A DNA stretch of 64,000 nucleotides from Chitinophagales bacterium (GTDB lineage Bacteria > Bacteroidota > Bacteroidia > Chitinophagales > Saprospiraceae), in NCBI GenBank assembly GCA_038323375.1, contig JBBQGV010000015.1, forward strand, positions 974 through 64,973. The letters run 5' to 3'. The notes below the pieces were generated by a model, which worked only from the letters and a program-made list of their open reading frames with translations, made no database searches and was not told the DNA's origin. How positions within the stretch are numbered: position 1 is the stretch's first letter; each line of letters opens with the position of its first letter. Positions 6,823 to 50,534 of the stretch are shown here, in pieces. A program made the translations under genes and the position numbers.

Positions 6823-6894
6823 GTTTGAAAAACGAAACGGCGTTGCTTCCGATTTGGAAACAACACCGTTCTATATCTATTATTGTTATCCTGA

Positions 6895-8456: not shown

Positions 8457-8641
8457 GCGCGGGCAGAGCCGGTAGGGTGCGCCCCTCGCGGTCGCCCAAA
8501 CACCCGAAATGATTTGAAGATTCGAGGATTTGAGAACAGAACGAACAACGCTCAACGCTCAACGCTCAACCCTTCACAAACCACACAGACCAATTTAATA
8601 CCAATAATAAAAGCACTCATTCAACTTTAACATAACAATTT

Positions 8642-29036: not shown

Positions 29037-29093
29037 AGTATCATTTATTGCAGCAGGCTTCGTATTTTGGGCGCAACCAAACCCGCTCCTGCC

Positions 29094-32721: not shown

Positions 32722-35700
32722 TTTCCGAGCAACAATTTAATGTCATCCTCTGAAAGCGCTTTCAAAGAAGCGCCATCAGCGGAAATGATGTTATCGAAGA
32801 GTTCTTTTTTGAGTTGTTGCAACTGCAGTATTTTTTCCTCGATACTGCCCTGTGCTATGAGCTTGTAAGCCAGCACTTTGTTTGTTTGGCCAATGCGGTG
32901 CGCCCGGTCTATGGCCTGATTTTCAGCAGCCACATTCCACCAGGGGTCATAAATAAAAATGGTGTCGGCAGCGGTGAGGTTAAGCCCTACCCCACCGGTT
33001 TTCAACGTCATTAAAAATACGCGGCAGTCGGGGTCGTTCTGGAAGCGATTGACGAGCGATTCGCGGTCGCGGGTAGCACCCGTCATGGACACATAGCCCA
33101 CCCCGGCATCATCCAAACGCGAAGAGATGCTCTCTATGGCCGCCAGGAAATTGACAAAAATAAGCGCTTTGTGCCCATTGGCAAGCGCGTCCATGAGTTG
33201 TTCTTCCAGCAGTTCCAGCTTGGCGCTCTCCACGCGGCCTTCGGTAAGCGCTTCCGGCACCGTGGCTATTTGTCGCAATTCGCTCAATGCCTGAAACACA
33301 AAAAACTGGGCACCTGCCACGCCTTTTTCTTTGATCTGCGTGTTGACCGCTTCTGCAAAGTACTGCCGGCGTTGCTCGTAGAGGCGTTTTTGCGCTTCGC
33401 CCATTTCCACATAAAGGGTTTGCTCTATTTTGTCGGGCAGGTCGGCCAACACGTCCCTTTTGAGGCGGCGCAGCACGAAGGGGTATATTTTGCGCCGCAG
33501 TTGGAGCGTGGCTGCTTTGTCGTTATGCTTTTGGATGGGCACAAGGTAGTCCTCATTGAACTGAGCAGCCGAGCCGAACATCGCAGGGTTGAGGAAGTGA
33601 AACAGCGCGTACAACTCACCGAGGTTGTTTTCAATGGGCGTGCCGCTGAGCGCTAACCTATATTTTCCGCGCAACAACAGCGCCGCTTTGGTGGTTTGGG
33701 TGGTCAGGTTTTTGATGTTCTGCGATTCGTCGAGGATGACGTAGTAAAACGGCTCCTCTTTGAGTTTTTCAATCTCGTTGCGCATGGTGGCGTACGTAGT
33801 AAACACGAGGTTGGAGCTGCGCATGGCCTCGTATTCCCGACTCAATCCGTAAAAAGTATACGTGCTGAGTTGTGGGGCAAACCGCTTCACCTCGCGCTCC
33901 CAGTTGAAAAGCAGACTGCGGGGCATCACGATGAGCGTAGGCGTTTTTTCTTTGGGATAAATGGTGGCCAGCAAAGCAATGGCTTGCAACGTTTTACCAA
34001 GCCCCATATCATCGGCTAAGCAGCCGCCGAGTTGTTGCTCGTGCAGGTAACTCAGCCATTTGAATCCCTGTTCCTGATAGGGACGGAGTTTGGCGTCTAA
34101 TTTTGGCAGTTTGGCCTTTTGGGCGCTGAGTCCGTTGAATCCCTCAAAAATATTGCGCGAACGCTCAAATACCTTGTCTTTGGCGGCCTCCTCCAAAAGT
34201 TCGTCCATGAGCGGCAAATCGAAAAAAGAGAGCTGTGCTTTTTTCCCCTTTTTTTTGAATAGCCGTTCTAAGCGCCGGACGTAAGCTTCATTAAGCAGGG
34301 CATGGGTGCCGTCATTGAGTTGAATGTAGCGGTTTTTGTTGTATTGAGCTAAGGCATCGAACAGGCTGATTTTTTCGCCCTCGAAATCCAATTCCACGCT
34401 GCCCTCGAAAAAGTCAATGGAGTGACTGAGGTTGAGCTGGAGTTTGGGCGAACGGGTATTAATCTTGTAAGACCGCAATTTTTCTGCGCCGAACACGGTG
34501 TAAGTCGCCAGCAGATTCGGCAATTCGGAATAAATAAAAGCGGCAGCAGTTTCTTCAGGAACGACGAAGAGGCTGCCGTCAAGCATGATCTCATCGCGGT
34601 CGTTTTTCCGCTTTTTAGGTTCGTGCTTGCGCAGCAAATGCAGGATATTGCCTGCGAGTACCTCGGTTGGTGCCTGATCTATGTACTTCACCGTGACCGT
34701 GAGCGCCATGTCGTTGATTTCGGCATAGCGGTAGAGGTCAAATTGCTCTAATGCGTTAAAATCTAAGTCGGCCAGGCTTTGGCCTACGCGCAGGTAGAGG
34801 GCATTGTCATCGCCTATTTTTTCAAAAATCAGACAAGGAGCCGCCTTGATTTTATCGTCGGGGCGCGACACAAGTTGGTAGCCCTGATACAAAAGGTCGA
34901 GGTTTTCGAGGTAAGAAAAAACCAACGCGAGAAACAAAGGCAGGTCGCGGCGCGCTACTTCCGTATTAAACCAGGAAATAGCTGCAAAATTACTGCCCGT
35001 TGGTGCCACTTCTATGAGTTGGTTGGCCGCTATAACAAACTGCTCGGTCACTACCCTGAAATCGTCCAGTTGATTTGCATTGTGTTGTAAGGACAGGCGC
35101 GAACGAAGAAACCCTTCGCGGTCGGAAGCCGTGAGATGCAGACGCAATTGGCCGGGCAAGTCCGAAAATTCCAGCGGTTTCAAAGCGGCATCCACCACAT
35201 TATCGCAATGACGCAGGGCTTCCAACAGGAATGGATGCTGTGCCAAATAGGTCTTGTCTGCCGGGTGTTCCCAGTTGATGACGAAGCTGTTCTTTTCCTG
35301 AATTTGCTCCAACACGCGCAGCACGTTCCGCACGGCACCACCATAATTGAGGTAGCTGGTTTCCACGGTGCGGCCTTTTGCATTCACCACCAGGAGAAAA
35401 GCACCAAACTCATCAAAATTGATCTGAAAAAACACCTCAGCATAAGCGCGCGACGTTTTTTGCTGAAAGGTGGTGCGCTTAAACCGCTCAAAAGAAAATG
35501 GCTGGCGATCCGAAACAACCGGAGGTGTTGCAGCAGGCATCGGGCTATCCGAACTGGCTGATCTCGCTACGGTCGTTTTTTTCTTTTCAGGCTTAACATC
35601 CGCAGCTTTTATTACACCACCGGGTTTTCTGCCCCGCTGCTTGAATAATGGCGCAGGTAATATCATTATGTCTCCTTTTTCAGCCAGCTCAATATCTGTC

Positions 35701-35933
35701 AGAAAAAGGTTCATTTCATCAAAATCATACCCATCCCGAAGACTCGCCCGGACAAAAGTCGTCGGCATTTTTTCCAGGGTTTCGAAATTCCATTTTATCG
35801 TGACAAGCGTTTCTTCTCCGGGCATTTCATCAATACGCGTGATGTAGCCCTGCCATCCGCTTAGGTCGTATTTCTCCATATCAGGGTCTTTAACGCCTGA
35901 TTTTATCCTGACAAAATCGTTAATTTTAAACAT
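32718..35933 (-). CDS. SNF2/Rad54-family helicase with a large N-terminal extension
   Basis: 1071-aa ORF. Motif I LADDMGLGKTLQ, motif II ILDESQNIKN, motif III LSGTPIENNLGELYALFHFLNP, motifs V/VI LKTGGVGLNLTAADTIFIYDPWWN...QAIDRAHRIGQ. Confidence 0.9.
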   Translation of the reverse strand: MFKINDFVRIKSGVKDPDMEKYDLSGWQGYITRIDEMPGEETLVTIKWNFETLEKMPTTFVRASLRDGYDFDEMNLFLTDIELAEKGDIMILPAPLFKQRGRKPGGVIKAADVKPEKKKTTVARSASSDSPMPAATPPVVSDRQPFSFERFKRTTFQQKTSRAYAEVFFQINFDEFGAFLLVVNAKGRTVETSYLNYGGAVRNVLRVLEQIQEKNSFVINWEHPADKTYLAQHPFLLEALRHCDNVVDAALKPLEFSDLPGQLRLHLTASDREGFLRSRLSLQHNANQLDDFRVVTEQFVIAANQLIEVAPTGSNFAAISWFNTEVARRDLPLFLALVFSYLENLDLLYQGYQLVSRPDDKIKAAPCLIFEKIGDDNALYLRVGQSLADLDFNALEQFDLYRYAEINDMALTVTVKYIDQAPTEVLAGNILHLLRKHEPKKRKNDRDEIMLDGSLFVVPEETAAAFIYSELPNLLATYTVFGAEKLRSYKINTRSPKLQLNLSHSIDFFEGSVELDFEGEKISLFDALAQYNKNRYIQLNDGTHALLNEAYVRRLERLFKKKGKKAQLSFFDLPLMDELLEEAAKDKVFERSRNIFEGFNGLSAQKAKLPKLDAKLRPYQEQGFKWLSYLHEQQLGGCLADDMGLGKTLQAIALLATIYPKEKTPTLIVMPRSLLFNWEREVKRFAPQLSTYTFYGLSREYEAMRSSNLVFTTYATMRNEIEKLKEEPFYYVILDESQNIKNLTTQTTKAALLLRGKYRLALSGTPIENNLGELYALFHFLNPAMFGSAAQFNEDYLVPIQKHNDKAATLQLRRKIYPFVLRRLKRDVLADLPDKIEQTLYVEMGEAQKRLYEQRRQYFAEAVNTQIKEKGVAGAQFFVFQALSELRQIATVPEALTEGRVESAKLELLEEQLMDALANGHKALIFVNFLAAIESISSRLDDAGVGYVSMTGATRDRESLVNRFQNDPDCRVFLMTLKTGGVGLNLTAADTIFIYDPWWNVAAENQAIDRAHRIGQTNKVLAYKLIAQGSIEEKILQLQQLKKELFDNIISADGASLKALSEDDIKLLLGK

Positions 35934-36650
35934 TGCTGGCTGGTTTCATGATGGCAAACCTAAGCAAGATGACAGATATTTTTCGGATTTTTTAAACCAA
36001 ATCCTCCAGCGGCAACACCTTTTCCACCAATCCACCTCTCCAACTCCAACAACTCCTGCTTATATTCAAATAATACGGCACATTTTCCGCCACCACAATG
36101 TCGGGGGGAGGTAGTGGATTAGCATCGAAGGCATCTTAATAATTTTATAACTTTGCTAAAAATATCCCGATTACCTTACATCAAGCAGCCATGAATACGC
36201 AGGTTTTAAAGTATCAACTGAAGTCATTAGAAAAGCTTCCGGTCAAGATTTGGGACGACTCTAAGGAAGCTTCGGTGCATCTTGCGCGCTCCATTGCCTT
36301 AGCCGTTCGGCAAAAACAACAAGATGGTGAAAAGATCATGCTTGACATAGGAGCGTGTCGTAAATAACTTACCTGTTTGACCACATTGACATCCAGCGGA
36401 AAAACATCCACATTCCAAGCGGCGTCATTCCGATGGATCAGGTCGAAGCTTATTGCAAAAACTATGAAAAACTGGTCTAGGAGCACGGCGGAATTGACAT
36501 CCAATTGCTGGGCATTAGGCGCACCGGGCATATCGGCTTCAACGGGCCGGGCAACTACAAATTCCGGGATTACCTGACCGTGGGCACGCCCCTGAATATC
36601 CTGGTTTGGCTGCTGGCGATGTTTTTGCTGCCGAAGGTGTTTCCGTTTTA
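35930..36650. pseudogene. mosaic scar of duplicated fragments: SNF2-upstream spacer + nagB-upstream region + decayed nagB 5' CDS + solo MITE-A end + last 32 codons of an SLC13 paralogue
   Basis: By eye, 35930-36030 matches 41320-41350 plus 41536-41607. 36040-36350 matches 46822-47120. 36351-36375 is a MITE-A terminus. 36376-36553 matches 47288-47465. 36553-36650 matches 30765-30863. Stop codons and deletions are present throughout. Confidence 0.7.
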
Positions 36651-36759
36651 AAATTCCATCAAAAATTCACCCCAATTCGCCCCTTTCCTCCCCTGATTCA
36701 TCCGTTTCCATTGGTGATCGCCTTCATGGACGCCTACTTTTGTAAGAAAAAAGAACGTC

Positions 36760-39160
36760 ATGAGTAAAAAATTATGCTTATTAGGCTTATTCGTATTAGG
36801 AATGTATGGAAGTATCCGGAGTCAGAGTGCCATCAGTGGCCGGGTTATTGACCAGCAGGGAGCTGCTGTGGACTTCGCCAATATTCTATTACTGAATTCA
36901 AAAGACTCTTCTTTGATAAAAGGAGAATTGAGTGATGAAAATGGCCAATGGACTATGCAGATTCCTTTCACCGGAACGTTTATCCTGCGCGTAACGATGC
37001 TGGGATATAGCGATTACGATTACCCGCCATTTACCATCAGGAAAACTGAAGAAGCCATGCAGTTGCCGGAAGCGCGGCTGCAATCCAGTTCCATTCAGCT
37101 TGCGGCTGTAGAAATAACGGCGCGCAAACCTTTCCTCGAACAACGCGCAGGCAAGCTGGTCGTCAATGTAGACCAAAGCATTACCGGACAAGGTGGCACG
37201 TTGGTAGATGTGCTGATGAAAGCGCCGGGGCTGGTGGTCATGAATGGCAAATTGAAAATAGGCAGGCCGTTCGGGTGTTACGATCCTGATAGATGGCAAA
37301 CCGACGCGGTATATGGACATTGAAGCCCTGCTCCGCGAAATGCCAGCAGACAACATCGAACGCATAGAAATCATACACCAGCCTGACGCCAGTTACGATG
37401 CGGACGGCACCGGAGGCGTCATCAACGTCATCCTGAAGAAAAATGTCCTGCTGGGCACTAATGGCAGCTTCTTGCTGGCGGGTGGTATGGGCAAACTTCC
37501 CAAATACCGCACGGCTATGGCGATCAACCACGGTGCCGGCCCCTGGAAAATGTCCTTCAACGGCGGTTATATGTATCGTTCCAATTATGAAGAATTGCAC
37601 CTCAACCGCATTGTGGGCGATTCAGAATTTGACCAAAGCAATTTTAAACCTTCCACCCCCTACACGGGCTATTTCCGATCCAATATTGACTGGAACCCGT
37701 CGAAACGCCATGTTTTTGGATTATCGCTCGGCTATACCGCCACCACGAACAACCGCCTGCACACCAATACGACAGCCATCGGATTTACAGGGTCAACCCC
37801 CTATATTGAATTGGAAACAAAAAACCAGCTCAACAAAAAAACCAATCAGTACATCACGGGCGGCAACTACACGTTCCTAATTGATACCAGCGGGCAAAAA
37901 TTAGAAGCAGACCTGAGTTGGATCGGGTTTAACCGACAGGGGTCGAGCCTTGCCAACACGGCAGTTACCATGGGTGAAAATGTTCCTTATCCATCCTGGC
38001 GAAATGAGGAGCCTTCCTTAACCAATATCACGGTGGCAAGAGTGGATTATACCCGCCCCATCACAGAAGCCATCAAGGTGCAGGCAGGCGTAAAATACAG
38101 CTATGCAGGTATTGACAACAACCTAAAATCGTGGAATGAAAACAGCGGCGAATGGATGAGAAATCCACAGCAAACCAACCATTTCTTGTACACGGAACAT
38201 ACCGGAGCAGCGTACCTGAATGCCAGTTATGTTCATAAAAACTGGGAAGCCAATGTGGGGCTGCGTTATGAAGACAATTACGCAAAAGGGCGTTCACTGA
38301 CGCTGGATTCTACCAAAACCCGGCACTTGCAGCAACTGTTCCCAAGCTTCAGTCTGGCCGCTCCCATGGGCAAACACTTCGGATTGTCGGCTTCCTACAG
38401 CTACCGGATTGAGCGCCCCAACTATCAGACCCTGAATCCATTTATCTACTATTACGATCCGTATACTTTTGAAAAAGGCAATACCGACCTGCTTCCCGAA
38501 CTGACGCACTCTGGTAAACTGACACTGACTTACGACAAACACCCGTTCATCGCCCTGGAATATTCGCACACCAAAGACATCATTACGCTGGTGACTGAGC
38601 AGGACGACGCAACTGGCGCAGCGTATGCCGCTACCGTGAACCTGGATTACCTGCAACGCTACGGCGGTAGTGTGTTTTTCCCGATGGAATTTGCGAAGGG
38701 CCTCTCCGGATACGGCAGTTTGATGTTGTTTTACAACCGCTATTCGTCGGATTACCTCGGCGGCAATTTCGACCGCGATGTGCTGTCGTTCTCCGCTTAC
38801 CTCCAGGTAGCTTACAAAATCGGCAGCGGCTGGTCGGCAGAACTCTCCGGCTGGTATCAGGGCGAAGGCATAGAAGGCATTATGAATTACAAGCCATTTT
38901 ATTCGGCAAGCATGGGCATCCAAAAGAAACTGCTGGACAACCGCGCCAATGTGCGGCTCTCTTATGACGCCTTCGCTTTCCGCAACTGGCGGGGAACGCT
39001 CGAATACCAGAATATGGACATGGAAGTGACCTCCATCTGGGAAACCCGCGTAGTGCAGGCCACGTTTACCTGGCAGTTTGGAAGCCGTTTTCTGAGCAAA
39101 GACCGCCAGCGCGCCAACAGTAGTGCAGAAGAAACATCCAGAGCAGGCCGAAAAGATTAA
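36760..39160 (+). pseudogene. TonB-dependent-receptor-like outer-membrane beta-barrel protein (CarboxypepD_reg + OMP_b-brl_3 type), frameshifted
   Basis: ORFs 36760-37323 and 37313-39160 are in different frames. The expected GVTILIDGKPTRYMDIE continuation is readable in the second frame from about 37275. Confidence 0.7.
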
Positions 39161-39322
39161 TATTCCGAATACAGTCGCATCATCTACAGGGGTTGTGTAA
39201 GAGGAGGCTGACTCATAAGGCAAGTTGCCACTTATGAGACCCCTTCTTTACACAACCACCTGCTCCTTGTTTTTGGCTCACCCTGAAAGCTTTTTTTATC
39301 TTTTTCTGAAAGTTTCAAAGGA

Positions 39323-40400
39323 TTGCTTATGTTAGTGTCCGCATTTTCACCGGAAAACATCATTCGGATGCTTAGTTTGAGGGAATTGTTCAGGTTTGGT
39401 TTGCGACAGCCTTCGCGCAGCGACTGGTTTGTCACGTTAGCCTATTGGATAGGTGCCTCGCCTTTTATCCTGAGCAGTTATCTTGGTGACAGCCCTTTCT
39501 TACAGGCCATCGGTGGGATGGTGTTTACCATTCTTTTCGATACTACGTCCGTATTTATCCTGGTCTTCGGCATTTTTGCCACGTACATTCCAAGGCGACA
39601 ATACTTAGCTTTATTGGTGGCTACTGTTGCGCTGTTTGCCGTCAATTCATTAGTTTACAATTACGGCTACGGCATCATTTTTGGGTGGGAATACCGGTCG
39701 CCAAGTTTCGAGTTATTGCTTTGGGGGGTGCTGCGGCATGCCCAGAGTTACGGCATCCTGGCAGCCATCATGATCGGAAAGCAGTTTTTCGACATCCAGA
39801 AGCAGTTTTTTGAGTTGGAAAAAGAGAAGCGCGAGAATGAACTAAAAATGCTCAAGTCGCAGATTGACCCGCATTTTTTTGTTCAACAACCTCAATATCC
39901 TGGATGTCCTGATCGAACGCGATCCGGCGGCAGCCCGGGTTTATCTCAACCACCTGGCTTCCCTTTACCGCTACCTCATCCGGCACAAAGACGAAGAAGT
40001 AGTGTCGCTGTACGACGAGTAGGCTTTCGCTAAAGACTATATTTACTTGTTGCAACAACGCTTTGGAGACGCCTTCAAGTTTGATCTTCAGGGCAATGCC
40101 GCTGATATGCAGACCTTTTTTATTCCGCCCGGCGCCATGCAAACGGTTATTGAAAACGTCGTCAAACACAATGAGGGCGACGATCATCAGCCCATCATGG
40201 TGTCTATTTTGTTGGAAAATGACGCAATTCTGGTGCGCAATACACTGCGACCAAAATTGGAAAGCGCCGAAAGCAATGGTACAGGCTTAGCCAACCTGCA
40301 GGCGCGTTATCGTTTATTAGTTGATCAAACCCCCGATATCCGGCGCGACAACGGCGAATTCGCTGTGCGTTTGCCGCTGATCCGGGGCGTAAAAGCCTGA
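39323..40400 (+). pseudogene. LytS/YehU-type sensor histidine kinase, inactivated by a T7 homopolymer frameshift and an in-frame TAG
   Basis: A multi-TM N-terminus is followed by LKSQIDPHF. After the T run at 39874-39880 the expected LFNNLNILDVLIE reads in the +1 frame. A TAG at 40020-40022 then precedes the HATPase part (ORF 40047-40400). Confidence 0.7.
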
Positions 40401-40405
40401 ACCGT

Positions 40406-41176
40406 ATGCGCGTATTTATCCTGGAGGATGAAGCGCTTGCCGCACAACGACTGATGGAATTCATCCGGATTGCACATCCGGATGCCCAGATTGTGGGGTG
40501 GGAAAAAACAATCCGGCAGGGCATGTTATGGCTGCAACAAAATGAGGAACCCGACCTCCTGTTTTCCGACATTGAACTGCTGGACGGCAATGTATTCCGA
40601 CTCTATGAGGCGCACCGTGTCAATTGTCCCGTCATTTTCACCACCGCTTACGACCAGTTTCTCCTTCAGGCTTTTCAAGTCAACGGCATTGCTTACCTGC
40701 TAAAGCCTTACGATCTGGAACAGTTCAAACAGGCCATTGCTAAATACAACCGCTTATTTGGCACTCCCACAGCGCCGGTGCTGACAGAAGCGGTGCTGGC
40801 ACAACTGAAGCAGGCTTTCCAGCCCGCGTTTGCACAATACAAGCAGCGCTTCACCGTGCGCATGGGCGGCGGCATTTATCTCCTGAATACCGAAGACATT
40901 CAATGCTTTACTGCTGAGGACAAATTGGTGCTGGCCTGCACCGCCGAAGGCAAACGCTACCCGCTCAACCAAACAATTGCTGAATTAGAAGGTATGCTTG
41001 ACCCGCGTCGTTTTTTTAAAATCAACCGCGGCGACATCGTCAACATCATAGCCATTCGGAAAATTGAACCCCATTTTAACGACCGGCTGGCAGTTACAGT
41101 GGTGGGGATTCCAAGTTTTTTGGTAACGAGCGCAGCACGCACGTCGGAGTTTCGGAAGTGGCTGGAGGAGGGTTAG
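40406..41176 (+). CDS. LytR/AlgR-family response regulator (receiver + LytTR DNA-binding domain)
   Basis: 256-aa ORF. Receiver (ILEDE...LLFSDIELLDG...KP) and LytTR (FFKINRGDIVNI). Confidence 0.9.
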   Translation: MRVFILEDEALAAQRLMEFIRIAHPDAQIVGWEKTIRQGMLWLQQNEEPDLLFSDIELLDGNVFRLYEAHRVNCPVIFTTAYDQFLLQAFQVNGIAYLLKPYDLEQFKQAIAKYNRLFGTPTAPVLTEAVLAQLKQAFQPAFAQYKQRFTVRMGGGIYLLNTEDIQCFTAEDKLVLACTAEGKRYPLNQTIAELEGMLDPRRFFKINRGDIVNIIAIRKIEPHFNDRLAVTVVGIPSFLVTSAARTSEFRKWLEEG

Positions 41177-41233
41177 TGGTTGTGTAAAAAGACCTGGCAC
41201 TTATCTATTAGTATGGCAGACAAGTCTTGCATC

Positions 41234-41323
41234 TTATTCCCTCCTAAACTCGTTATCGCATTTTCCCGTATCTGGATCTTCAACCCCGGGTTTCACCTTG
41301 ACAAGGTCGTTTATTTTAAACAT
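41234..41323 (-). pseudogene. remnant of the first about 18 codons of an SNF2-helicase paralogue
   Basis: It translates to MFKINDLVKVKPGVEDPD..., compared with MFKINDFVRIKSGVKDPD at the start of 32718-35933. The upstream spacer is also duplicated. Confidence 0.6.
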
Positions 41324-41355
41324 TGCTGGCTGGTTTCATGATGGGCAAACCTAAG

Positions 41356-41535
41356 AAGCGTGTCGTGAATAACTTACCGGTTTGCGCGGTGGCTTTTTCC
41401 ATCATGCAGCGTTGATCGTCGGTCGCGTAGCTTAGGCTATACTCCCTTCTCGCGCCTTGCCTGATGAAAAAATCTGACATGCTGAGCCTGTCGAAGCACC
41501 TCGCCCAATTCACGCAACTTATTTACGACACGCTC
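41356..41535. mobile_element. MITE-A (180 bp), 20-bp imperfect TIRs, 5-bp TSD CTAAG
   Basis: Left end AAGCGTGTCGTGAATAACTT. Reverse complement of the right end GAGCGTGTCGTAAATAAGTT. CTAAG occurs at 41351-41355 and 41536-41540. The uninterrupted paralogous site at 35957-35963 reads AACCTAAGCAAG. Confidence 0.75.
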
Positions 41536-41733
41536 CTAAGCAAGATGACGGATATTTTTCGGAATTTTTAAAACAAATCCTCCAGCGTCAACACCTTTTC
41601 CACCAACCCGAGGCTGTGCAGGTTGTGTTTCAAGCCAAAAGTGGTCACCATCGTCAACATCAGGTGTTTTCGGGTTTGGGTGACCCTGTGAAAAACCCAC
41701 ATTTTGTTTCGTGAAGTTATTGGTGGCGGAATA

Positions 41734-41780
41734 GCGGGTTACGTGTCGGACACTTTGAAAGTGTCCGACACGTAACCCGC
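41734..41780 (-). terminator. long perfect hairpin immediately after the stop of the 191-aa gene
   Basis: GCGGGTTACGTGTCGGACACTT-TGA-AAGTGTCCGACACGTAACCCGC, a stem of about 22 bp, 3 nt downstream of the TGA at 41784-41786. There is no obvious U-tract. Confidence 0.55.
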
Positions 41781-41783
41781 TAT

Positions 41784-42359
41784 TCAACGCGCAAGGTTCT
41801 TGATCTGCTCTTTCAGTTCATAAGCCTGCACTGCCGTTCGCCGGAGAACGCGGTTTTCTCTCAAGACCTCCAGACTTGCTTCCATGCGCTCCGTAGAAAG
41901 CCCTTCCGGGAAAATTTGCCGAAAGCTTTGCTGCACCGCTTCCGTCGTAAAAGCCTTCCCCGGTAATTTGGAAATGGCATAAATCACTTGCGCTTCCTGA
42001 TCCGTGAACTGAATTTTCAGTTTGGGATAAAAATCAATCAATAACATGACGAAGCCGTAGATGATCTTTTTCACCGTTTCATCAAACAGCGCAATGCCCG
42101 CGTATTGGCCGATGAACTTCAGGATCTCTTCGGTGGAAAGCCGCGCAATATTGGTTAGTTTAAATGACTCGGCGCTGTGTTTGCCAGAGGAGTCCTGCTC
42201 CTGCCTGATAGAACGCGTTTCTTTGCTTTCGGCGATGGGGCGTGGAACAAGCTGAATGTTTTCGTGTAAGATGTCGAGCGTGGCTTCATCCAGCGCCATG
42301 CCGTGCTTTTCCAATGCGGCTGTAAGGTAAGCCGCCAAAATGTCTCTTTGATTTTCCAT
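41784..42359 (-). CDS. hypothetical 191-aa protein, last gene of the Roc-CHAT module
   Basis: It starts 13 nt after the stop of the 957-aa gene. It is helical, with a possible C-terminal winged-helix (LEVLRENRVLRR). No family recognised. Confidence 0.6.
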   Translation of the reverse strand: MENQRDILAAYLTAALEKHGMALDEATLDILHENIQLVPRPIAESKETRSIRQEQDSSGKHSAESFKLTNIARLSTEEILKFIGQYAGIALFDETVKKIIYGFVMLLIDFYPKLKIQFTDQEAQVIYAISKLPGKAFTTEAVQQSFRQIFPEGLSTERMEASLEVLRENRVLRRTAVQAYELKEQIKNLAR

Positions 42360-42372
42360 GATCCTGCGTTTT

Positions 42373-45216
42373 TTATTGAGGGTAGATGCGCTGGCCGTTG
42401 TAGTAGGCTTCGATTAGCTTGGGAATATCCTTATCGGATAGGTTTGCCCGGCTTATCCCCCGCCTAATTGACTGTTCGAGGCTTTTATTTTTAACTAAAT
42501 TCCGATAAACCCCGGCTGCAAAAATACGCGCTGTTTCGGAAAATATCTCTTTGGTGGTACCAATGGTAAAAATACCAACCTTGCTGATAGCTACCGCTTG
42601 TTCGCGGCTGTGACAGGCGTTGAGAAATACCAACTTGAGTTGAGGCAAGTCTTCTTTGAAGTTGCGAAAAAGGACTTCCAGTTGCTCGGATGACAGGACT
42701 TCTTTTCCATTTTTTCCATTACTGTGCAGCACTAACCCCGCAGGTTGCTTGATGATGCCTTCGGGATCCATGTCTCCCTCCTCCTGCCCATGTCCGCAAA
42801 AGTGTAAAATAGACGGCTCATGACGCTCAATTGCATCGTGCATATCACTTAGACTTGCCTGTTCACATATCTCTATACAAAACTCCCCTTCCCCTTGAAC
42901 GCTATCTTTAAGGCTGCTCCTGATGGATTCGCTCTCGATCTCCCAACTTATTAGTTTTTCCGTTGGATTGGCTTGCAAAAACAATAATGTCACTTTCTCC
43001 TGCCCAAATTCCAGTGGGGGAATGGGTATGGATAAAGACTGTTCAGCCCCCAGCTTTTCCACCCCCAATTTCTGAATTAAGCGCTCGGTTTGGGCTTGGT
43101 GTGCTTCTTTTGGAAGCTCCAATTTACCCTGATCCCGGCGTCCCAAAAATATTTTCAGATCTTCAACGGCCACCAGTGTGTCATTTTCGGCGGGTATCCG
43201 GTCTTGTTGCCAATTTTTCAACTTGGACATATTTACATAATCCTGACCATTGAGACTCACCCACTCTTGCACAGCTTCACCTTGCAGTTCTTCGATTGTG
43301 TTGCGGATTTTATCCATCAACCCCAGGTTATGCTTGTCGCAAAGGATATTGATGTCGTAGGCGTGCCTGCCACGATGAGTAGCGCGCTGCACGGTTACCA
43401 TCGCATAGTGCCCGGATTCTTTGACGACAATGCCATGTTGCCAGATGTCTTTGGTATCGGCTAATGACTGCGCTCTGACAATAAACCGCTGCATGGTGCC
43501 CTGATGCAGGAAATCGTGCCGGTATTGTATATACAGCATTTTCGACAAGCCCTGTACTACCTCAACAATGGAAGGCTCATCTTTCGGCAACAGTTGTGGT
43601 GCTATAAACTGCCGTTCTGCCAGAGGAACTTGGCGGTATTTATCTTCTTCCTTCTGTTCAGTAACTTCAAAACAAAGTTCGCAACTGATCATGAAGCTGA
43701 TAAAAAGTTCCTGTTCTGCCGGCGACGGCTGTTTTTTTGACCATATTTCCTGTAAGTTAGCACCTGAAAAACGGCCTTTGAGCGTATCCCGCAGGTAATG
43801 ATACTGCAACTTATTATTCCGGTTAAACACAGCATAAACCGCCTCAATAGCCCAGCTTTGATCCAGCATAACGGCGTTGCCAAAATAACCTTCCCGATAA
43901 AATACCACCCCGGTTTGTGCGAGCCATTTGAGCACATCCATTGGGTGTTCGATATGGTAATCTCCTGCAATGTCAAAATACTCATCCAAAGGCAGGGCTT
44001 TAGTCCCGGATCGCAACAGATCGCGCAGATGTTGTCTAAGGTTAGCCCAGGTTAAAGGCAGTTGTTTTTCGATACCCAGCCGTCGTTCAATGGCTTCCTT
44101 AACCGTAAACAGCAGCTTATTGCAGCCGTTGTTTCTTTTATCTGATATGAAAGAGTCTATCTGAAGAAAATCCATAGGTTTGTATCGCTGATCCAAAGCG
44201 TATTCGTCCGGGTGGCGGCTATTGTCTGCCTGGCTTTTGGTTTTTACGACAATTACGGGACTGTTACCACCCTGATGACGGATATAATGCAGCCAATAGT
44301 CTAATGAGAAATTCTCGTATTGACGTTCTTCGCCATCCTCTTGAATGGGACTCTCAGGATTTTGGCGCGTCTCCTCATCCCATAGAGCCAGATACACCGC
44401 ATTGACCTGCATAAACAGCCGGTGAGTAGCATGGTAGATGTCCTGCCCGCCAAAGTCCCAAAGATTCAGAATGAACGGAAAATCCGAAGGCTGTTCGCGA
44501 GGATATTGCTCCAGCACCACGCCATGAGTGGACAAATGGCGCTGCTCAAAGGTCTCATACACTAAGCGCTCTACCAGACAACTCTTCCCTACGCCTCCGT
44601 TACCCACCAGCAGTACTTTAAATTCCTTGTTTTCAGTCTCTCCATTGCCCAACTCCTGCAGAAAGCGTTGCATAAAAGGCAAACTGCTACCACTCACATC
44701 AGCGGCCTGCCTTTTAGCGCTGGTGAGTGGATTGCCTTTGAGAAAAAATTGTACCAATTTGGGAAAGCGAACCAGCAAATGGGCCGAAAATTCATTCAGT
44801 TGATTGTCACTGAGATCCAGGTGGCGCAGTTGAGCCAATTGCCCCACCAGTATAAAAGTCTTTAGTTTATTTCTGCTCGCATCCAACCAGCGCAGCCTGT
44901 CAAAGCCTGCGGGGAACTTCAGTTCGCCCTCCAGGCCGCTGTCGCTCACATCTAAGTGTTCCAGCGCGGGCAGCGCTGCCTGAAATTCCAGTTTTTTAAG
45001 CTGCTCATTGTTGCCAAGATTGAGGTATTGCAAATCCGGTAGTGCCGGCAAACTCAATTCCCCCACATCCAGCTTCGTGGCGCAAATACCAATGACCTCC
45101 CTCGCCTTGTTACAGCAAAAGGCATTCGGCGCAAAAAATTGCCGCAGCGCCGTCAAATCCGACTGCTCCTCAAAACTGACCCCAAAAAGGGTTTTCAAAA
45201 ATTGTTCTGGTTCCAT
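42373..45216 (-). CDS. LRR-Roc(GTPase)-COR protein with a C-terminal CHAT/caspase-like protease domain
   Basis: LRRs (LQYLNLGNNEQL, LEHLDVSDSGL, LRWLDASRNKL, LRHLDLSDNQL). Roc G1 LLVGNGGVGKS, G3 LWDFGGQ, G4-like VVKTKSQAD. A long COR-like middle region. C-terminal His/Cys dyad context ILHFCGHG ... LVFLNACHS. The ATG at 45216 is preferred; the ORF track extends to 45246. Confidence 0.8.
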   Translation of the reverse strand: MEPEQFLKTLFGVSFEEQSDLTALRQFFAPNAFCCNKAREVIGICATKLDVGELSLPALPDLQYLNLGNNEQLKKLEFQAALPALEHLDVSDSGLEGELKFPAGFDRLRWLDASRNKLKTFILVGQLAQLRHLDLSDNQLNEFSAHLLVRFPKLVQFFLKGNPLTSAKRQAADVSGSSLPFMQRFLQELGNGETENKEFKVLLVGNGGVGKSCLVERLVYETFEQRHLSTHGVVLEQYPREQPSDFPFILNLWDFGGQDIYHATHRLFMQVNAVYLALWDEETRQNPESPIQEDGEERQYENFSLDYWLHYIRHQGGNSPVIVVKTKSQADNSRHPDEYALDQRYKPMDFLQIDSFISDKRNNGCNKLLFTVKEAIERRLGIEKQLPLTWANLRQHLRDLLRSGTKALPLDEYFDIAGDYHIEHPMDVLKWLAQTGVVFYREGYFGNAVMLDQSWAIEAVYAVFNRNNKLQYHYLRDTLKGRFSGANLQEIWSKKQPSPAEQELFISFMISCELCFEVTEQKEEDKYRQVPLAERQFIAPQLLPKDEPSIVEVVQGLSKMLYIQYRHDFLHQGTMQRFIVRAQSLADTKDIWQHGIVVKESGHYAMVTVQRATHRGRHAYDINILCDKHNLGLMDKIRNTIEELQGEAVQEWVSLNGQDYVNMSKLKNWQQDRIPAENDTLVAVEDLKIFLGRRDQGKLELPKEAHQAQTERLIQKLGVEKLGAEQSLSIPIPPLEFGQEKVTLLFLQANPTEKLISWEIESESIRSSLKDSVQGEGEFCIEICEQASLSDMHDAIERHEPSILHFCGHGQEEGDMDPEGIIKQPAGLVLHSNGKNGKEVLSSEQLEVLFRNFKEDLPQLKLVFLNACHSREQAVAISKVGIFTIGTTKEIFSETARIFAAGVYRNLVKNKSLEQSIRRGISRANLSDKDIPKLIEAYYNGQRIYPQ

Positions 45217-45217
45217 A

Positions 45218-45486
45218 CGCTTTGTTTCGCGGGCTTCGTTTCGCACGCTTCGTTTCGCACGCTTTGTTTCGCACGCTTTGTTTCGCGGGCTTCAGTCCGC
45301 TTTGTTCCACACGCTTTGTTTCGCGGGCTTCAGTCCGCTTTGTTTCGCACGCTTTGTTTCGCGGGCTTTGTTTCGCGGGCTTCAGTCCGCTTTGTTTCGC
45401 ACGCTTCGTTTCGCACGCTTTGTTTCGCGGGCTTCAGTCCGCTTTGTTTCGCACGCTTCGTTTCGCACGCTTCAGTCCGCTTTGTT
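45218..45486. repeat. degenerate 12-14-nt tandem array built from REP-2 half-sites (GCTTYGTTTCGCRS / GCTTCAGTCCGC), minus orientation
   Basis: About 20 consecutive units begin 2 nt upstream of the Roc-CHAT start codon. Confidence 0.8.
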
Positions 45487-45580
45487 ACCCCCACAGTTCA
45501 ACTGTTCATTCATATATATCATTAGGTAGTTCATATAGCCAGGCTGTAGTGTGGATAGCCTACAAAATTTTCTTTTCTTT

Positions 45581-45835
45581 TGACAGCGGACTAAAGCCCG
45601 CGAAACAAAGGAAACAAAGCACACGAAGCGAACCCGTGAAATAAACGCTTTACGCTTTTGACAGCGGACTAAAGCCCGCGAAACAAAGCACACGAAGCGA
45701 ACCCGTGAAATAAACGCTTTACGCTTTTGACAGCGGACTAAAGCCCGCGAAACAAAGGAAACAAAGCACACGAAGCAAACCCGTGAAATAAATGCTTTAC
45801 GCTTTTGACAGCGGACTAAAGCCCGCGAAACAAAG
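45581..45835. repeat. tandem 78/69/78-nt repeats plus a partial unit, each containing GCGGACTAAAGCCCGCGAAAC (REP-2, plus orientation)
   Basis: Units start at 45581, 45659, 45728 and 45806. The 9-nt length difference is a GAAACAAAG duplication. The array is inverted relative to 45218-45486. Confidence 0.85.
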
Positions 45836-45892
45836 CCGCGACTCCCCGCGACACAAAAAAATAAAGGGTAAAAGGGTAAAAGTGACCAAGGG

Positions 45893-46636
45893 TTAGTACC
45901 GAGCCAGGCGAAAACCGATATTGAGGCTCCTGTTAACAGCATTGAAGAGGAAGTAGCGGTAGGACACCCGACAGAAGTCATCGTTGATGTTCCAGGACCC
46001 GCCACGAACCACGCGGCCAGCGCCATTGCTCTCTGCCCAGGCGCTGCCGTCCTGTGGCGCCTTTTTGTAATCATCCTGCCAATGATCCGCACACCATTCC
46101 CATACGTTGCCGCTCATGTCGTACAAACACAGTTCGTTGGGCAATTTCAGTCCGACGGGCTTTGTGGCACGGTGGCTGTTTTGCCTGAACCAACCCACCT
46201 CTTTCAACTGGTGGCTGCCCGCGTAAGGAAAGCCCAGACTCTGTCGCCCGCCCCGGGCTGCGTATTCCCATTGTGCTTCCGTTGGCAGGCGAAACCGGCG
46301 GCCATCCTGCTCATTTAGCTGCTGGATGTTGGGCAGGGCATTGAGTTTTTCCAGAAAAAGCCGGGTGTCGTCCCATGAAATCTGCTCGACGGGCAGGTCA
46401 GCACCTTTAAAGTGGGAAGGATTGTCCTGCATCACGCCCTGCCATAGTGCCTGGGTCACCGGGTATTGGCCGATCTCAAAAGATGCGATCTTGACGGGGT
46501 GGATGGGATTTTCATTGCGATATGCATCACGGCCCATCATAAAATCGCCGCCCTCCACGGTTACCATCGGAATGGATAAGCCATCGGCTATGGGGATATT
46601 CAGGATAGGAACAAGCGGTTTGTTTTGCACGAGCAC
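45893..46636 (-). CDS. formylglycine-generating-enzyme (SUMF1/FGE-sulfatase) family protein without a signal peptide
   Basis: 247-aa ORF. MVTVEGGDFMMG, RLPTEAQWEYAARGG, GNVWEWCAD, RVVRGGSW. GTG start at 46636, or a downstream ATG. Confidence 0.85.
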   Translation of the reverse strand: MLVQNKPLVPILNIPIADGLSIPMVTVEGGDFMMGRDAYRNENPIHPVKIASFEIGQYPVTQALWQGVMQDNPSHFKGADLPVEQISWDDTRLFLEKLNALPNIQQLNEQDGRRFRLPTEAQWEYAARGGRQSLGFPYAGSHQLKEVGWFRQNSHRATKPVGLKLPNELCLYDMSGNVWEWCADHWQDDYKKAPQDGSAWAESNGAGRVVRGGSWNINDDFCRVSYRYFLFNAVNRSLNIGFRLARY

Positions 46637-46689
46637 AGGGTTTGTTTTTGAGTTGGCGGCTTCAAAACGGCATAAAGCTAAGGTTTTTT

Positions 46690-46806
46690 TTAATGTCTGT
46701 CTTTATAGTCCGATAGCTGCGTTGTGCGAAGGCTCAAAACTGGTCATTTACACGAGTAACCTACGGCGGACTGAAGCCCGCGAAACAAAGCACACGCGAA
46801 ACGAAA
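46690..46806. repeat. REP-1 half-copy (46690-46740) followed by a REP-2 half-site (46764-46806)
   Basis: TAATGTCTGTCTTTATAGTCCGATAGCTGCGTTGTG and GGCGGACTGAAGCCCGCGAAACAAAGCACACG. Confidence 0.55.
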
Positions 46807-46966
46807 CCCTACACCACCAACTCCAACGACTCCTGCTTATTCAAGTAATACGGCACATTTTCCGCCACCACAATGTCGGGGGGGAGGTAGTGGATTAGCA
46901 TCGAAGGCATCTTAATAATTTTATAACTTTGCTAAAAATATCGCGATCACGTTACATCAAACAGCC

Positions 46967-48886
46967 ATGAATACGCAGGTTTTAAAGTATCAGTTGAAGT
47001 CATTAGAAAAGCTTCCAGTCAAGATTTGGGACGACTCTAAGGAAGCTTCGGTGCACATTGCGCGCTCCATTGCCTTAGCCGTTCGGCAAAAGCAGCAGGA
47101 CGGCGAAAAAATTGTACTTGGTCTGGCAACAGGCTCCTCCCCCATCAAGGTTTACGAAGAATTGGTGCGCATTCACAAGGAAGAAAAACTAAGTTTTTCC
47201 AATGTAGTCACCTTCAACTTAGATGAATACTATCCCATGGATCCCGGCGCGCAACAAAGCTATGTGCGCTTTATGAACGAATACCTGTTTGACCACATTG
47301 ACATCCAGCGGGAAAACATCCACATCCCAAGCGGTGTCATTCCGATGGATCAGGTGGAAGCTTATTGCAAAAACTATGAAAAACTGATCGAGGACCACGG
47401 CGGAATTGACATCCAATTGCTGGGGATTGGGCGCACCGGGCATATCGGCTTCAACGAGCCAGGCTCCTGGGAAGACTCCGAAACCCGGATGGTGCGTTTA
47501 GACACCCTTACCCGCCGCGACGCCATCAAGGATTTCATTTATGAAGATGCAGTACCCTATCGTGCTATCACAATGGGCATTGCCACCATCATGAAGTCGA
47601 AAACGATCTACCTGATGGCCTGGGGCAGCCACAAAGCCGCCATTGTTAAAGAAGCGGTAGAAGGTTCGATCACTACATCTGTTCCGGCTACCTACCTCCA
47701 AAAACATCCCAACATCAAGGTTTATGTGGACGCCAGCGCCTCCACCGAGTTATCCCGCATCAACACGCCGTGGTTAGTAGGCATTTGCAACTGGAACGAA
47801 GACCTGGTTTGCAAAGCCGTGGTCTGGCTGTCGCTGAAAACTGGCAAACCCATCCTGAAACTGACCGACGAAGATTATAGCGAAAACCACCTGAGCGACC
47901 TGACCATAGAATACGACGACGCTTATAACATCAACATCAAAATTTTCAACCGCCTGCAACACACCATCAGCGGCTGGCCAGGCGGCAAACCCAACGCCGA
48001 CGACACCCACCGGCCCGAACGCGCCAAACCGGCCAAAAAGCGCTGCATCATCTTCAGTCCGCACCCCGACGACGATGTCATTTCGATGGGCGGCACGTTC
48101 CTGCGCTTGGTAGACCAGGGGCACGAGGTACACGTGGCCTACCAGACTTCGGGCAATATTGCGGTGCACGACCACGACGCCCTGCGCTATGCAGAGTTTT
48201 TGAAAGAACTTTCTGAATTTACCGGGCCTGCCGACGACAAATTGCACACGCTCAGCAAAAAGGTCATCCAGTTTCTCGGGGAAAAACAACCCGATCAGTC
48301 GGACATTGCCGAAGTGCGTCAGATGAAGGGCCTCGTAAGAAGAGGAGAAGCGCGCGCAGGTGCTCGTTTTTGCGGCTTACAAGACCACCACATCCACTTC
48401 CTCGACATGCCATTTTACGAAACCGGGCGCACACGCAAAAAACCGGTGGGGGAAGCAGACATTCAGCTTCTCGTGGACTTATTGGTGAAAGTAAAGCCGC
48501 ACCAGGTTTACGCAGCCGGAGATCTCGCCGATCCGCACGGCACGCACCGGGTATGTCTGGAAGCGATTTTCGAGGCATTCAGGCGCTTGCAGGACGCTGC
48601 CTGGATGAAAGACTGCTGGCTTTGGCTGTACCGGGGTGCCTGGCACGAATGGTCAATTGACGAAATTGAAATGGCGGTTCCCATCAGCCCGAAAGAAATG
48701 GATCGCAAGCGCAAGGCCATTTTTATGCACCAAAGTCAAAAAGACCGGCCGCCTTTCCCCGGCGACGACAATCGCGAATTCTGGCAGCGCGCCGAAGAGC
48801 GCAACCGCGAAACGGCCAACCTCTACCGGGCGTTGGGGCTGGCGGAATATGAGGCGATGGAGGCGTTTCGGAGGTGGAAGTTTTAG
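46967..48886 (+). CDS. nagB: long-form glucosamine-6-phosphate deaminase (NagB domain fused to an LmbE/PIG-L-like domain)
   Basis: 639-aa ORF. N-terminal [29 protein letters not shown]-terminal FSPHPDDDVISMGG. Confidence 0.85.
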   Translation: MNTQVLKYQLKSLEKLPVKIWDDSKEASVHIARSIALAVRQKQQDGEKIVLGLATGSSPIKVYEELVRIHKEEKLSFSNVVTFNLDEYYPMDPGAQQSYVRFMNEYLFDHIDIQRENIHIPSGVIPMDQVEAYCKNYEKLIEDHGGIDIQLLGIGRTGHIGFNEPGSWEDSETRMVRLDTLTRRDAIKDFIYEDAVPYRAITMGIATIMKSKTIYLMAWGSHKAAIVKEAVEGSITTSVPATYLQKHPNIKVYVDASASTELSRINTPWLVGICNWNEDLVCKAVVWLSLKTGKPILKLTDEDYSENHLSDLTIEYDDAYNINIKIFNRLQHTISGWPGGKPNADDTHRPERAKPAKKRCIIFSPHPDDDVISMGGTFLRLVDQGHEVHVAYQTSGNIAVHDHDALRYAEFLKELSEFTGPADDKLHTLSKKVIQFLGEKQPDQSDIAEVRQMKGLVRRGEARAGARFCGLQDHHIHFLDMPFYETGRTRKKPVGEADIQLLVDLLVKVKPHQVYAAGDLADPHGTHRVCLEAIFEAFRRLQDAAWMKDCWLWLYRGAWHEWSIDEIEMAVPISPKEMDRKRKAIFMHQSQKDRPPFPGDDNREFWQRAEERNRETANLYRALGLAEYEAMEAFRRWKF

Positions 48887-49220
48887 TAACTTATTTTTTT
48901 TGATGCACCGGCGGCGGCCACGCCGATTTGGTGCTGCCCTGAAACATGGTGCAAGTGCGCGTAAAACTGAGCCGCTGAGACAGCAACCACGGCCTCGTGC
49001 TACCGGGCGAAGGCAAAGGCAATTTTGAACCGTTGCCCTCCGTAGCAAGCGGCATCCGCCTGAAAGGAGAAGTGTGGGCAGTGAAAATGGCCAGGCTTGG
49101 CTCCCGCGTACTCTTGCGTTTATCTTCTAATCATCAAAAGTCTCAAAAAGTCGCCTCAAAAAGCAACAATTCAGAAAATAAGGCGTTTTGTTGCGAATAA
49201 TTCGCAAAAACCCTCTTATT

Positions 49221-50137: not shown

Positions 50138-50534
50138 AAAACAAACAAGCAGATCAAATTGCGGCCAAAAAAAGACATCATGTTCAATTAAAAGAGAAAC
50201 GAAGAAGCGAACCTTTGCTGGAAAGAAATGGATCATTCTCCATCTTGAGGATCATTAGGGAGGCGGGATGAACAGAAGTGATTATGATGCTAAAATCAAC
50301 AACCTTTTAAGACCTTATAACCTTGTTTACGATGGAAAGAATAGTAAAATCATCACAGATGATTTTTTTGATCTGCTTGATGGCGTAGATGAAAAAACGA
50401 ATAAAGAGAGAAAGCTTTTAGCAATCAAGCGGGCTAAAAGGACTTATGATTTGTTTGATCATACAAATCCGGCAAGTGAAGAATCCTCAACGACTGTATT
50501 CAGGCTCGTTGAAGAATTATTGAAATATATTTAA
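50134..50534 (+). pseudogene. RloB-like (Toprim-type partner) remnant
   Basis: The start overlaps the ATPase stop (ATGA). A KWIILHLEDH-like motif is out of frame. Only a C-terminal 88-aa ORF (50268-50534) remains intact. Confidence 0.4.

Follow-up and report, generated by a model that had tools for sequence, protein, structure and literature searches.

The DNA analysed here is a stretch of 64 kb (the window) of contig JBBQGV010000015.1 from a Chitinophagales bacterium, which a genome scan with nagB places in uncultured Saprospiraceae together with three informative relatives, L001, L002 and L003. Between the upstream region of an SNF2 helicase gene and the remnant of a lacI-family regulator beside nagB, the window contains a cassette of three real genes, which encode a protein of 191 amino acid residues, a leucine-rich repeat (LRR) protein with Roc, COR and CHAT domains (RocCHAT) and an FGE-sulfatase protein with a C-type-lectin (CLec) fold, whereas the other open reading frames (ORFs) of this interval are translations of arrays of repetitive extragenic palindromic (REP) sequences, as judged from the ORF list and Pfam. 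The flanks of the cassette recur elsewhere in the window, and we refer to the two sets as copy A (~35959-36552) and copy B (~41535-47464), which belong to longer duplication arms A and B. The initial annotation had regarded the cassette as an insertion of about 5.2 kb and copy A as its 'empty-site' paralogue. A paralogous copy indeed exists, but it is a degenerate duplication arm devoid of the lacI stop codon and not a naive site, and in this lineage of Saprospiraceae the cargo is hypervariable at the spot just 3' of the lacI-family stop and 5' of nagB. The features of the locus are collected in Table 1.

Table 1. Features of the permease-nagB interval, with coordinates in the window.
Feature	Coordinates	Strand	Basis or remark
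CitMHS/Na-sulfate-symporter-type permease, left anchor of the locus	29067..30863	+	Pfam; L002 synteny (directly precedes lacI-nagB there)
614-aa protein and SNF2 helicase (1071 aa)	30877..35933	-	Pfam; complete only in duplication arm A
Full SNF2 gene, arm A	32718-35933	-	Abutted by the copy A upstream region
SNF2 upstream region, copy A (left flank in the initial annotation)	35959..36033		93% identity to 41535-41609
Junction filler ACCTCT, copy A	36034..36039		Matched by neither flank; lacI stop codon gone here
lacI-family gene 3' end remnant, copy A	36040..36119	-	2-bp insertion causing a frameshift
nagB promoter and 5' pseudogene, copy A	36131..36552	+	~160 bp of nagB swapped for ~25 bp resembling MITE inverted repeats
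Permease 3' end copy, fused in frame to pseudo-nagB	36542..36649	+	83% identity to 30754-30861; chimeric ORF 36505-36651
Outer-membrane beta-barrel receptor, split LytS-type histidine kinase, LytTR response regulator	36760..41176	+	Kinase and LytTR orthologous in L003
SNF2 start fragment (~23 codons), copy B	41234..41344	-	82% identity to 35866-35954
MITE-like element, 179 bp	41356..41534		Absent from copy A
SNF2 upstream region, copy B, ending CCACCAAC-CC	41535..41609		Alignment
Spacer 3' of the 191-aa gene	41610..41783		Holds a perfect palindrome with 28-nt arms, 41729-41785
191-aa partner protein	41784..42359	-	No Pfam family
LRR-Roc-COR_A-COR_B-CHAT protein (RocCHAT), 957 aa	42373..45246	-	Pfam, translation, homologues
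REP arrays	45208..45841		14/24-nt units at 45208-45500; 69-78-nt units at 45577-45841
FGE-sulfatase (C-type-lectin fold) protein, 247 aa, DGR variable protein	45893..46636	-	Pfam; VR ~45893-46022
High-copy short repeats between FGE gene and lacI remnant	46637..46806		REP-2-like ~46694-46727; REP-1 46763-46796
lacI-family regulator remnant, copy B: last 28 codons and stop	46809..46895	-	Stop is CTA at 46809-46811
Intact nagB (glucosamine-6-P isomerase and PIG-L domains), right anchor	46967..48886	+	Pfam; genome scan

RocCHAT has the domain order of Roco proteins, with a Roc domain (PF08477, residues 210-338) followed by COR-A (PF16095, 397-553) and COR-B (PF25497, 569-681), and its translation contains the P-loop GNGGVGKS and the motif DFGGQ. 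The CHAT domain is found at residues 784-929 (PF12770, E = 2e-10) and includes HFCGHG and NACHS, which by analogy correspond to a putative His...Cys catalytic dyad. Its LRR-Roc-COR homologues in Bacteroidota (P0012-P0131) end in CHAT, TIR (PF13676/PF01582) or PF19964, an alternation that suggests a modular exchange of effectors; an exact-protein look-up of RocCHAT returned no record with either of two start codons. The 191-residue protein is a member of a very small family (11 clusters), the genes of which follow the LRR-Roc-COR-CHAT gene in every recovered context. Its AlphaFold model (mean pLDDT 61.6) has a winged-helix-like C-terminus and a low-confidence loop that carries the invariant motif DSSGK.SA.S.KL, and a profile search against the PDB gave no matches; this 19x protein, named after the length of its members, is a candidate substrate or adaptor. 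No family in PADLOC v2 matches RocCHAT, the 191-residue protein or the FGE protein.

The FGE protein (PF03781, E = 3e-51, residues 24-246) has, as expected from the variable protein of a diversity-generating retroelement (DGR), a variable repeat (VR) at the 3' end of its gene. Comparison of the window VR (45893-46022) with the template repeat (TR) of a conspecific metagenome contig, L087, evidences differences at 14 of 33 adenines and at none of the 82 C, G or T positions, the VR having in addition one extra codon, and the VRs of L087 and L001 likewise show mismatches at adenines only. Mismatches restricted to TR adenines thus identify the window FGE gene as a DGR variable protein. The arrangement in L087 is [REP]-FGE1-TR-RT(RVT_1)-bAvd-REP array-FGE2-lacI remnant-nagB, where RT is the reverse transcriptase, and its positions 1-4300 hold an intact DGR between two near-identical repeats of REP and FGE 3' sequence, with the TR at 1095-1222. 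No RT, Avd or TR is present in the 64-kb window, so the FGE gene has no cognate RT or Avd there: its locus is a decayed or assembly-collapsed DGR, in which an orphan or decayed target is left, and the part missing from the window could have been lost either by homologous deletion or by assembly collapse. The contig depth over the FGE 3' half, ~2-3x that of the flanks in three metagenomes, suggests that a form with two FGE targets is common in nature. No close relative of either RocCHAT or the DGR RT was found among viruses, which is a weak negative as the method detects close relatives only.

The initial annotation had pointed to the comparison of related genomes for presence or absence of the cassette, and in these it is indeed not always present. 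L002 (NagB 93% identical at the amino acid level), which is syntenic with the window over ~14.6-30.9 kb, continues with the permease, 62 bp, lacI and nagB, and has neither SNF2 nor cassette. In L003 (NagB 94%) the site is occupied by HK-LytTR (HK, histidine kinase), two WD40 propeller proteins and a Peptidase_C14-nSTAND1 protein, followed by lacI-nagB; the latter protein, of 793 aa, forms with the two WD40 proteins (1319-8669) a different caspase/NTPase conflict system in the same hotspot. L001 (NagB 96%) has a diverged copy of the cassette, 191-RocCHAT-FGE1-TR-(RT and Avd remnants)-FGE2-nagB, the remnants being limited to the C-terminal 50 aa of the RT and residues 43-116 of Avd. Similarity to the window stops sharply at the lacI stop in L002 and L003 and at the nagB promoter in L001. 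The synonymous divergence (dS) between the window and L001 amounts to 0.53 for nagB, which in L002 is not unusual compared with other syntenic genes, and to 1.86, 1.71 and 1.14 for RocCHAT, the 191-aa gene and FGE2, respectively, and this discordance between cassette and nagB points to allele exchange at the hotspot. Within the species, which is present in microbial-mat and freshwater samples (runs X1-X9), metagenome contigs are 99-99.9% identical to the window: seven (L081-L086 and L097) show arm A and the left junction of arm B, while the right junction is seen in contigs L087-L093. A scan of metagenomes with SNF2 retrieved the same species at 100% and otherwise no full-length match above ~64%, with two C-terminal fragments reaching 73%, and yielded no sister genome that would polarise the SNF2-lacI junction.

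The gene set is also encountered in distant genomes. It appears as FGE-(Avd remnant)-FGE-RocCHAT-193-FGE amid unrelated metabolic genes (L094), as FGE-FGE-IS-RocCHAT-195 (L095; IS, insertion sequence), as FGE-RocCHAT-FGE (L178) and, in L177, as FGE-FGE-bAvd-RT-FGE-RocCHAT-193-FGE x6, with nine FGE genes, a TR at the 3' end of the RT and VR-like FGE 3' ends; L096 is a further recurrence. The unrelated contexts of L094, L095, L177 and L178 indicate that these genes travel together and that the travelling unit is bigger than three genes. The three genes are a genuine, horizontally shuffled module, and the cassette of the window is a composite of the RocCHAT pair, REP arrays and a DGR remnant. The proposal that the three genes arrived or were excised as a cassette thus holds in so far as they are accessory DNA and a set that recurs elsewhere, but an insertion is a direction that these observations do not show.

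Formal alignment of the two copies supports the contiguity of the cassette flanks that had been reported at 35957-36060, with a similarity that ends within a few bases of the junctions. On the left, 35959-36033 in A corresponds to 41535-41609 in B (75 nt, 93%; local alignment and repeat search agree), and on the right 36040-36060, 36063-36102 and 36103-36314 correspond to 46817-46837, 46838-46877 and 46879-47090, respectively, with identities of 95-97%. Overall, 36040-36344 is 96% identical to 46817-47120, the sole bases unmatched by either flank are the 6 nt ACCTCT at 36034-36039, and copy A is, as had been estimated, short of ~5.2 kb. A further match joins 36369-36552 to 47281-47464 (93%), and another 35866-35954 to 41256-41344 (82%), so that the paralogy is longer than was initially seen. 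At 36542-36552 the pseudo-nagB of arm A is continued in frame by a duplicate of the final 108 nt of the permease gene (83%); this novel head-to-tail joint is the signature of a tandem segmental duplication bounded by the permease 3' end and the nagB 5' end. Both copies have lost ~1.1 kb of lacI with identical breakpoints. Between the shared pieces the arms are wholly different, A having the 614-aa gene and the SNF2 body, and B the barrel, the split HK and LytTR. Only arm B contains the element resembling a miniature inverted-repeat transposable element (MITE) at 41356-41534, which has 19-nt terminal inverted repeats (AGCGTGTCGTGAATAACTT and AACTTATTTACGACACGCT, 17/19 complementary), a flanking CCTAAG direct repeat and a ~40-fold depth in metagenome contigs. 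A piece resembling the MITE inverted ends (36348-36379) replaces ~160 bp of the arm-A nagB pseudogene.

As for the genes particular to each arm, SNF2 and the 614-aa protein, which has no assigned function, are an adjacent pair in 66 of 80 Bacteroidota SNF2 loci; the first ~147 residues of the window SNF2 are lineage-specific, and in PADLOC it matches only generic SNF2 models (DpdE, ZorD). The beta-barrel/CarboxypepD_reg receptor gene of arm B (36760-39160) is polymorphic in the population: it is intact (799 aa) in the conspecific contigs L081 and L084, and frameshifted near 37313 in four others and in the window. For the spacers 41177-41260 and 36650-36760 no source was detected elsewhere.

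The right flank of the cassette is what remains of the lacI-family gene. Positions 46812-46895 (minus strand) encode the last 28 residues of the regulator, ...IVVAENVPYYLNKQESLELVV (tblastn E = 2.8e-7), which in L002 and L003 is intact (381 aa, LacI and Peripla_BP_4) and has a direction of transcription divergent from that of nagB; a search for a remnant in L001 found none. The regulator is down to 28 codons in both copies of the window, and in this species nagB has probably lost its local repressor. The direct repeat CCACCAAC that had been described as bounding the cassette is present at 41600-41607 and 46814-46821 (six copies in the window versus 2.1 expected by chance). However, it was not made by an insertion: its right copy is the 3' coding end of lacI (...L-V-V-stop), kept in the cassette-free L002 and L003 with the preceding CCTACA, and the stop codon of the gene, part of this CCTACA, falls on the side of the cassette. 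This conservation indicates that the 8-mer is older than the event and that there is no target-site duplication. Indeed, homology of the right flank to the cassette-free relatives begins at ~46807 and not at 46814, and the extra DNA is ~41610-46806, the homology break between the copies nevertheless being near the spot initially claimed. The left flank, upstream of the SNF2 gene, abuts the full gene in A and a ~23-codon fragment in B. The lacI stop is kept in B, L002 and L003 and lost in A, whose junction also has ~5 differences in 20 nt compared with 4-7% elsewhere, and the missing stop together with these clustered changes indicates that copy A is derived at this point.

Features of autonomous mobility were sought throughout the locus. 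As the initial annotation had stated, no transposase or integrase is encoded in 41610-46806 (Pfam, all three ORFs); of the features expected of an integrase-mediated island, no recombinase was found (Pfam) and no tRNA or tmRNA in the 64 kb, nor were there any Rfam families. There are 90 inverted pairs in 41500-46900, and of the 25 longest none joins the ends of the segment as terminal inverted repeats would, all 25 being REP-REP pairs or the internal palindrome 41729-41785. A hairpin related to this palindrome lies 3' of nagB in L001 (8771-8820), and it appears to be a dispersed hairpin/terminator-type repeat. At the right end the 6-7 nt of the lacI stop and CCACCAAC are those of L002 and L003, as opposed to a duplication generated by insertion, and the comparison of base composition that had been suggested gives for the cassette a GC of 0.46-0.51, similar to the flanks, with no sign of foreign origin. 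The REP sequences do border the FGE gene as initially noticed, as the REP-type GCGGACTGAAGCCCGC has 12 matches in the window versus 0.02 expected, with 10 of the 12 at 45285-46781. Metagenome contigs were mapped across the locus for alternative junctions and no joint between 41607 and 46814 was seen. Two skips, 41539->46694 and 41773->46697, were rejected as evidence of excision, their sides having just 20-21 nt in high-copy repeats. The X12 contig that skips 41345-41534 is no proof of a MITE-free allele, since copy-A bases follow a stretch of 31 nt identical in A and B, and it may be an A/B chimeric path.

The account that we favour, with a confidence slightly above even, combines a module at a hotspot with an old tandem duplication, reciprocal loss and a deletion scar in copy A. 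A tandem duplication would have taken in everything between the 3' end of the permease gene and the 5' end of nagB, after which arm A would have kept 614-SNF2 and lost the outer-membrane protein (OMP)-HK-LytTR genes and the cassette, and arm B would have kept OMP-HK-LytTR, cassette and nagB and lost the SNF2 body. The copy-A junction (36024-36050) would then be no pre-insertion target but the scar that an imprecise deletion left at the microhomology CCACCAA. The nagB 5' segments are 92.7% identical between A and B and 88.9% between B and L001, and as LytTR (L003) and the cassette (L001) are at the locus in lineages that split before the A/B duplication, their absence from A is most simply a loss. 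Between genomes, the module would move without a recombinase of its own, most likely by homologous recombination in the conserved flanking genes, by illegitimate or microhomology joins and by recombination among the REP and MITE repeats at its borders. The alignments, the gene content, the DGR signature, the variation of the cargo and the recurrence of the module are shown directly, and the order of events, the direction of the deletion and the biochemical mechanism are what we infer; as to direction, the balance leans to a deletion in A, which we hold to be somewhat probable, an insertion in B being rather unlikely.

Several observations weigh against this account. No population contig has a filled A site or an empty B site. 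The divergence of the arms is uneven, with 82-83% identity for the permease and SNF2 pieces and 93-96% for the promoter, lacI and nagB pieces, which is not predicted by one simple duplication date. Recombination between the two CCACCAAC copies would yield TTTTCCACCAACTCCAAC and copy A has 8-9 extra bases, so that a deletion scar would imply another small event in addition. In L001 the cassette has a left neighbour other than the SNF2 upstream region, and the adjacency of the two is thus lineage-specific. Finally, the cassette dS in respect to L001 is two to three times that of nagB, and the present cassette could therefore have entered arm B after the duplication.

Such a later entry, which we regard as unlikely, would start from an arm B left 'empty' after the duplication, with the SNF2 upstream region abutting the lacI stop (CCTACACCACCAAC). 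The 191-RocCHAT-REP-FGE block would have come in as one piece, through an illegitimate join at a microhomology, CC(C) or CCACCAA, or through homologous replacement from a donor strain, and copy A would represent the pre-insertion state with later point changes. It is consistent with both homology breaks lying within 6 nt of each other in copy A, and with a module clearly mobile horizontally at a larger scale; also, cassette dS values of 1.1-1.9 versus 0.53 for nagB are those expected from exchange independent of the flank. Nevertheless, the lacI stop that B shares with L002 and L003 is missing from copy A, and this, with the ~5 differences in 20 nt, points to a derived A. In addition, a cassette is already present upstream of nagB in L001, which judging from the nagB 5' distances split before the A/B duplication, and the block has neither a mobility gene nor defined ends.

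A different kind of alternative, marginally less probable and hence unlikely too, is that the RocCHAT-REP-FGE linkage is an assembly artefact, the sequence having collapsed across a near-identical pair of [REP array-spacer-REP-FGE 3' half] repeats, and that the true locus holds a full DGR as in L087. Every independent conspecific short-read contig breaks in REP arrays, L087 positions 1-300 are 100% identical to 3048-3347, the depth over the FGE 3' half (45891-46107) is ~2-3x that of the flanks in metagenomes X1, X4 and X8, and the window is devoid also of 403 bp that all conspecific contigs have and of another 1426 bp. A real homologous deletion between the same repeats would, however, give an identical structure, and independent decay of this DGR does occur, in L001. 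Moreover, the comparison of the A and B junctions is unaffected by a collapse, as the contigs described above show the left junction seven times and the right one in L087-L093.

We consider it improbable that DNA of a related strain joined two diverged haplotypes head to tail, P-614-SNF2-lacI'-nagB and P-OMP-HK-LytTR-...-cassette-lacI'-nagB (P, permease), in which case 'empty' and 'filled' would be old alleles. The significantly uneven identity of the arms (18 mismatches in 108 nt of permease versus ~29 in 396 nt of nagB and promoter) and their entirely different content from the permease piece to the SNF2 start are what one would then expect; but both arms have the derived lacI deletion of 1.1 kb, down to identical breakpoints, arm B holds a remnant of the SNF2 start, and the nagB and SNF2 scans found no relative with either pure haplotype. 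Least credible by far is a transposon-like or integrative cassette that duplicated an 8-bp target on insertion, for although identical 8-mers (CCACCAAC) lie exactly at the A/B homology breaks, the right one is lacI coding sequence that with CCTACA is found in cassette-free L002 and L003, the last 6-7 nt of the cassette would need to resemble the lacI stop region fortuitously, the left one has no preceding CCTACA-type sequence, and transposase, integrase, terminal inverted repeats and tRNA are missing from a segment whose ends are not conserved in L001.

Two further differences between the window and its conspecific contigs lie to the right of nagB. The 403 bp absent at 49316/49317 shorten the gene of a 450-aa AAA_15/AAA_21 (AbiEii/OLD-like) ATPase (window ORF 49340-50137), which sits in a low-GC (0.34) islet, 49200-50400, just 3' of nagB. 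At ~56764-56885, in comparison with L087-L090, the 1,426 bp are absent with a 17-nt overlap at the break, and with them most of the gene of a 497-aa AMP-binding enzyme in a polyketide/fatty-acid-like cluster.

Regarded as genome plasticity, the favoured account, that of duplication, reciprocal loss and a deletion scar, describes nothing out of the ordinary: a hotspot for cargo, flanked by core genes, in which a duplication and REP and MITE sequences are intermingled. It also carries a caution, namely that an internal 'empty site' and a short direct repeat are no proof of insertion, given that in the present case the repeat belongs to an old coding sequence and it is the empty copy that is derived. 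The added value lies in the re-annotation of the FGE gene as a DGR variable protein and of RocCHAT and 19x as genes within the DGR loci of several Bacteroidota, which links a Roc-COR switch of the LRRK2 type, and its caspase-like output, with a set of receptors under hypermutation. By analogy with what has been predicted in the literature, the DGR-diversified lectin-fold proteins would sense a ligand, the Roc-COR GTPase would switch and the CHAT protease would execute, possibly on 19x. More tentatively, and with doubts that outweigh our confidence, FGE(n)-DGR-[LRR-Roc-COR-CHAT]-19x might be a distinct and undescribed immune or kin-recognition system of filamentous Bacteroidota. In such a system the free-standing lectin-fold proteins (as many as nine, in L177), with sequences rewritten by the DGR, would form a hypervariable receptor repertoire that signals to the LRRK2-like GTPase switch; the CHAT protease would act on the dedicated 19x protein, with the invariant DSSGK.SA.S.KL loop as a possible cleavage or docking site, and the present locus would be a natural 'frozen repertoire' mutant after loss of the retroelement. 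If the link is functional, it would offer a tractable bacterial model for Roc-COR signalling and for DGR receptor diversification in immunity or self/non-self recognition.

In respect to known systems, the site resembles what is generally known of variable hotspots and defence islands: the boundaries at core genes are sharp and common (lacI stop, nagB promoter), the immune-type cargo differs among close relatives (Roc-COR-CHAT/DGR, caspase-nSTAND1/WD40 or none), there is no integrase and dS is discordant between cargo and flank. It differs in that the cargo is tangled with a local segmental duplication and with REP/MITE invasion, and in resting on three informative relatives. With IS elements, transposons and integrative islands with target-site duplications it shares the 8-bp direct repeat at both homology breaks, but here transposase, integrase, inverted ends and tRNA are missing and the repeat pre-exists in lacI.

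As regards the module, LRR-AP-GTPase(Roc)-COR proteins with variable C-terminal effectors are described as counter-invader systems in PMC8195603 (Kaur et al. 2021), where links to FGS and DGR are noted in cases in which the AP-GTPase replaces the STAND NTPase. The module fits this class, having LRR-Roc-COR followed by an effector and a swapping of CHAT, TIR and PF19964 as described for it; the flanking stand-alone DGR targets and the 19x partner set it apart, an association that the accessible part of the paper does not spell out, and we did not find these free-standing targets and partner described. DGR-diversified FGS/CLec domains have been proposed as putative antigen sensors in NTPase/protease conflict systems of multicellular bacteria (PMC7159879, Kaur et al. 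2020; PMC10907252, Dore et al. 2024). In common with these, our locus and its relatives have an FGE-sulfatase/CLec target with a C-terminal VR, an RT, bAvd and adenine-specific mismatches to a TR, several paralogous targets, an NTPase switch with a caspase-like (CHAT) protease nearby and a host of a filamentous lineage (Saprospiraceae). In contrast, the lectin-fold targets are here free-standing (~245-260 aa) and unfused to an NTPase, vWA or effector-associated domain, the switch is a Roc-COR GTPase and not a STAND or MoxR ATPase, a dedicated partner of 19x aa with no known fold is present, and the window itself is without RT, Avd and TR. Finally, RocCHAT shares with the Roco proteins (C. tepidum Roco, LRRK2 and DAPK1) the tandem of Roc G-domain and COR preceded by LRRs (Pfam), and departs from them in its output, which is a CHAT protease rather than a kinase.

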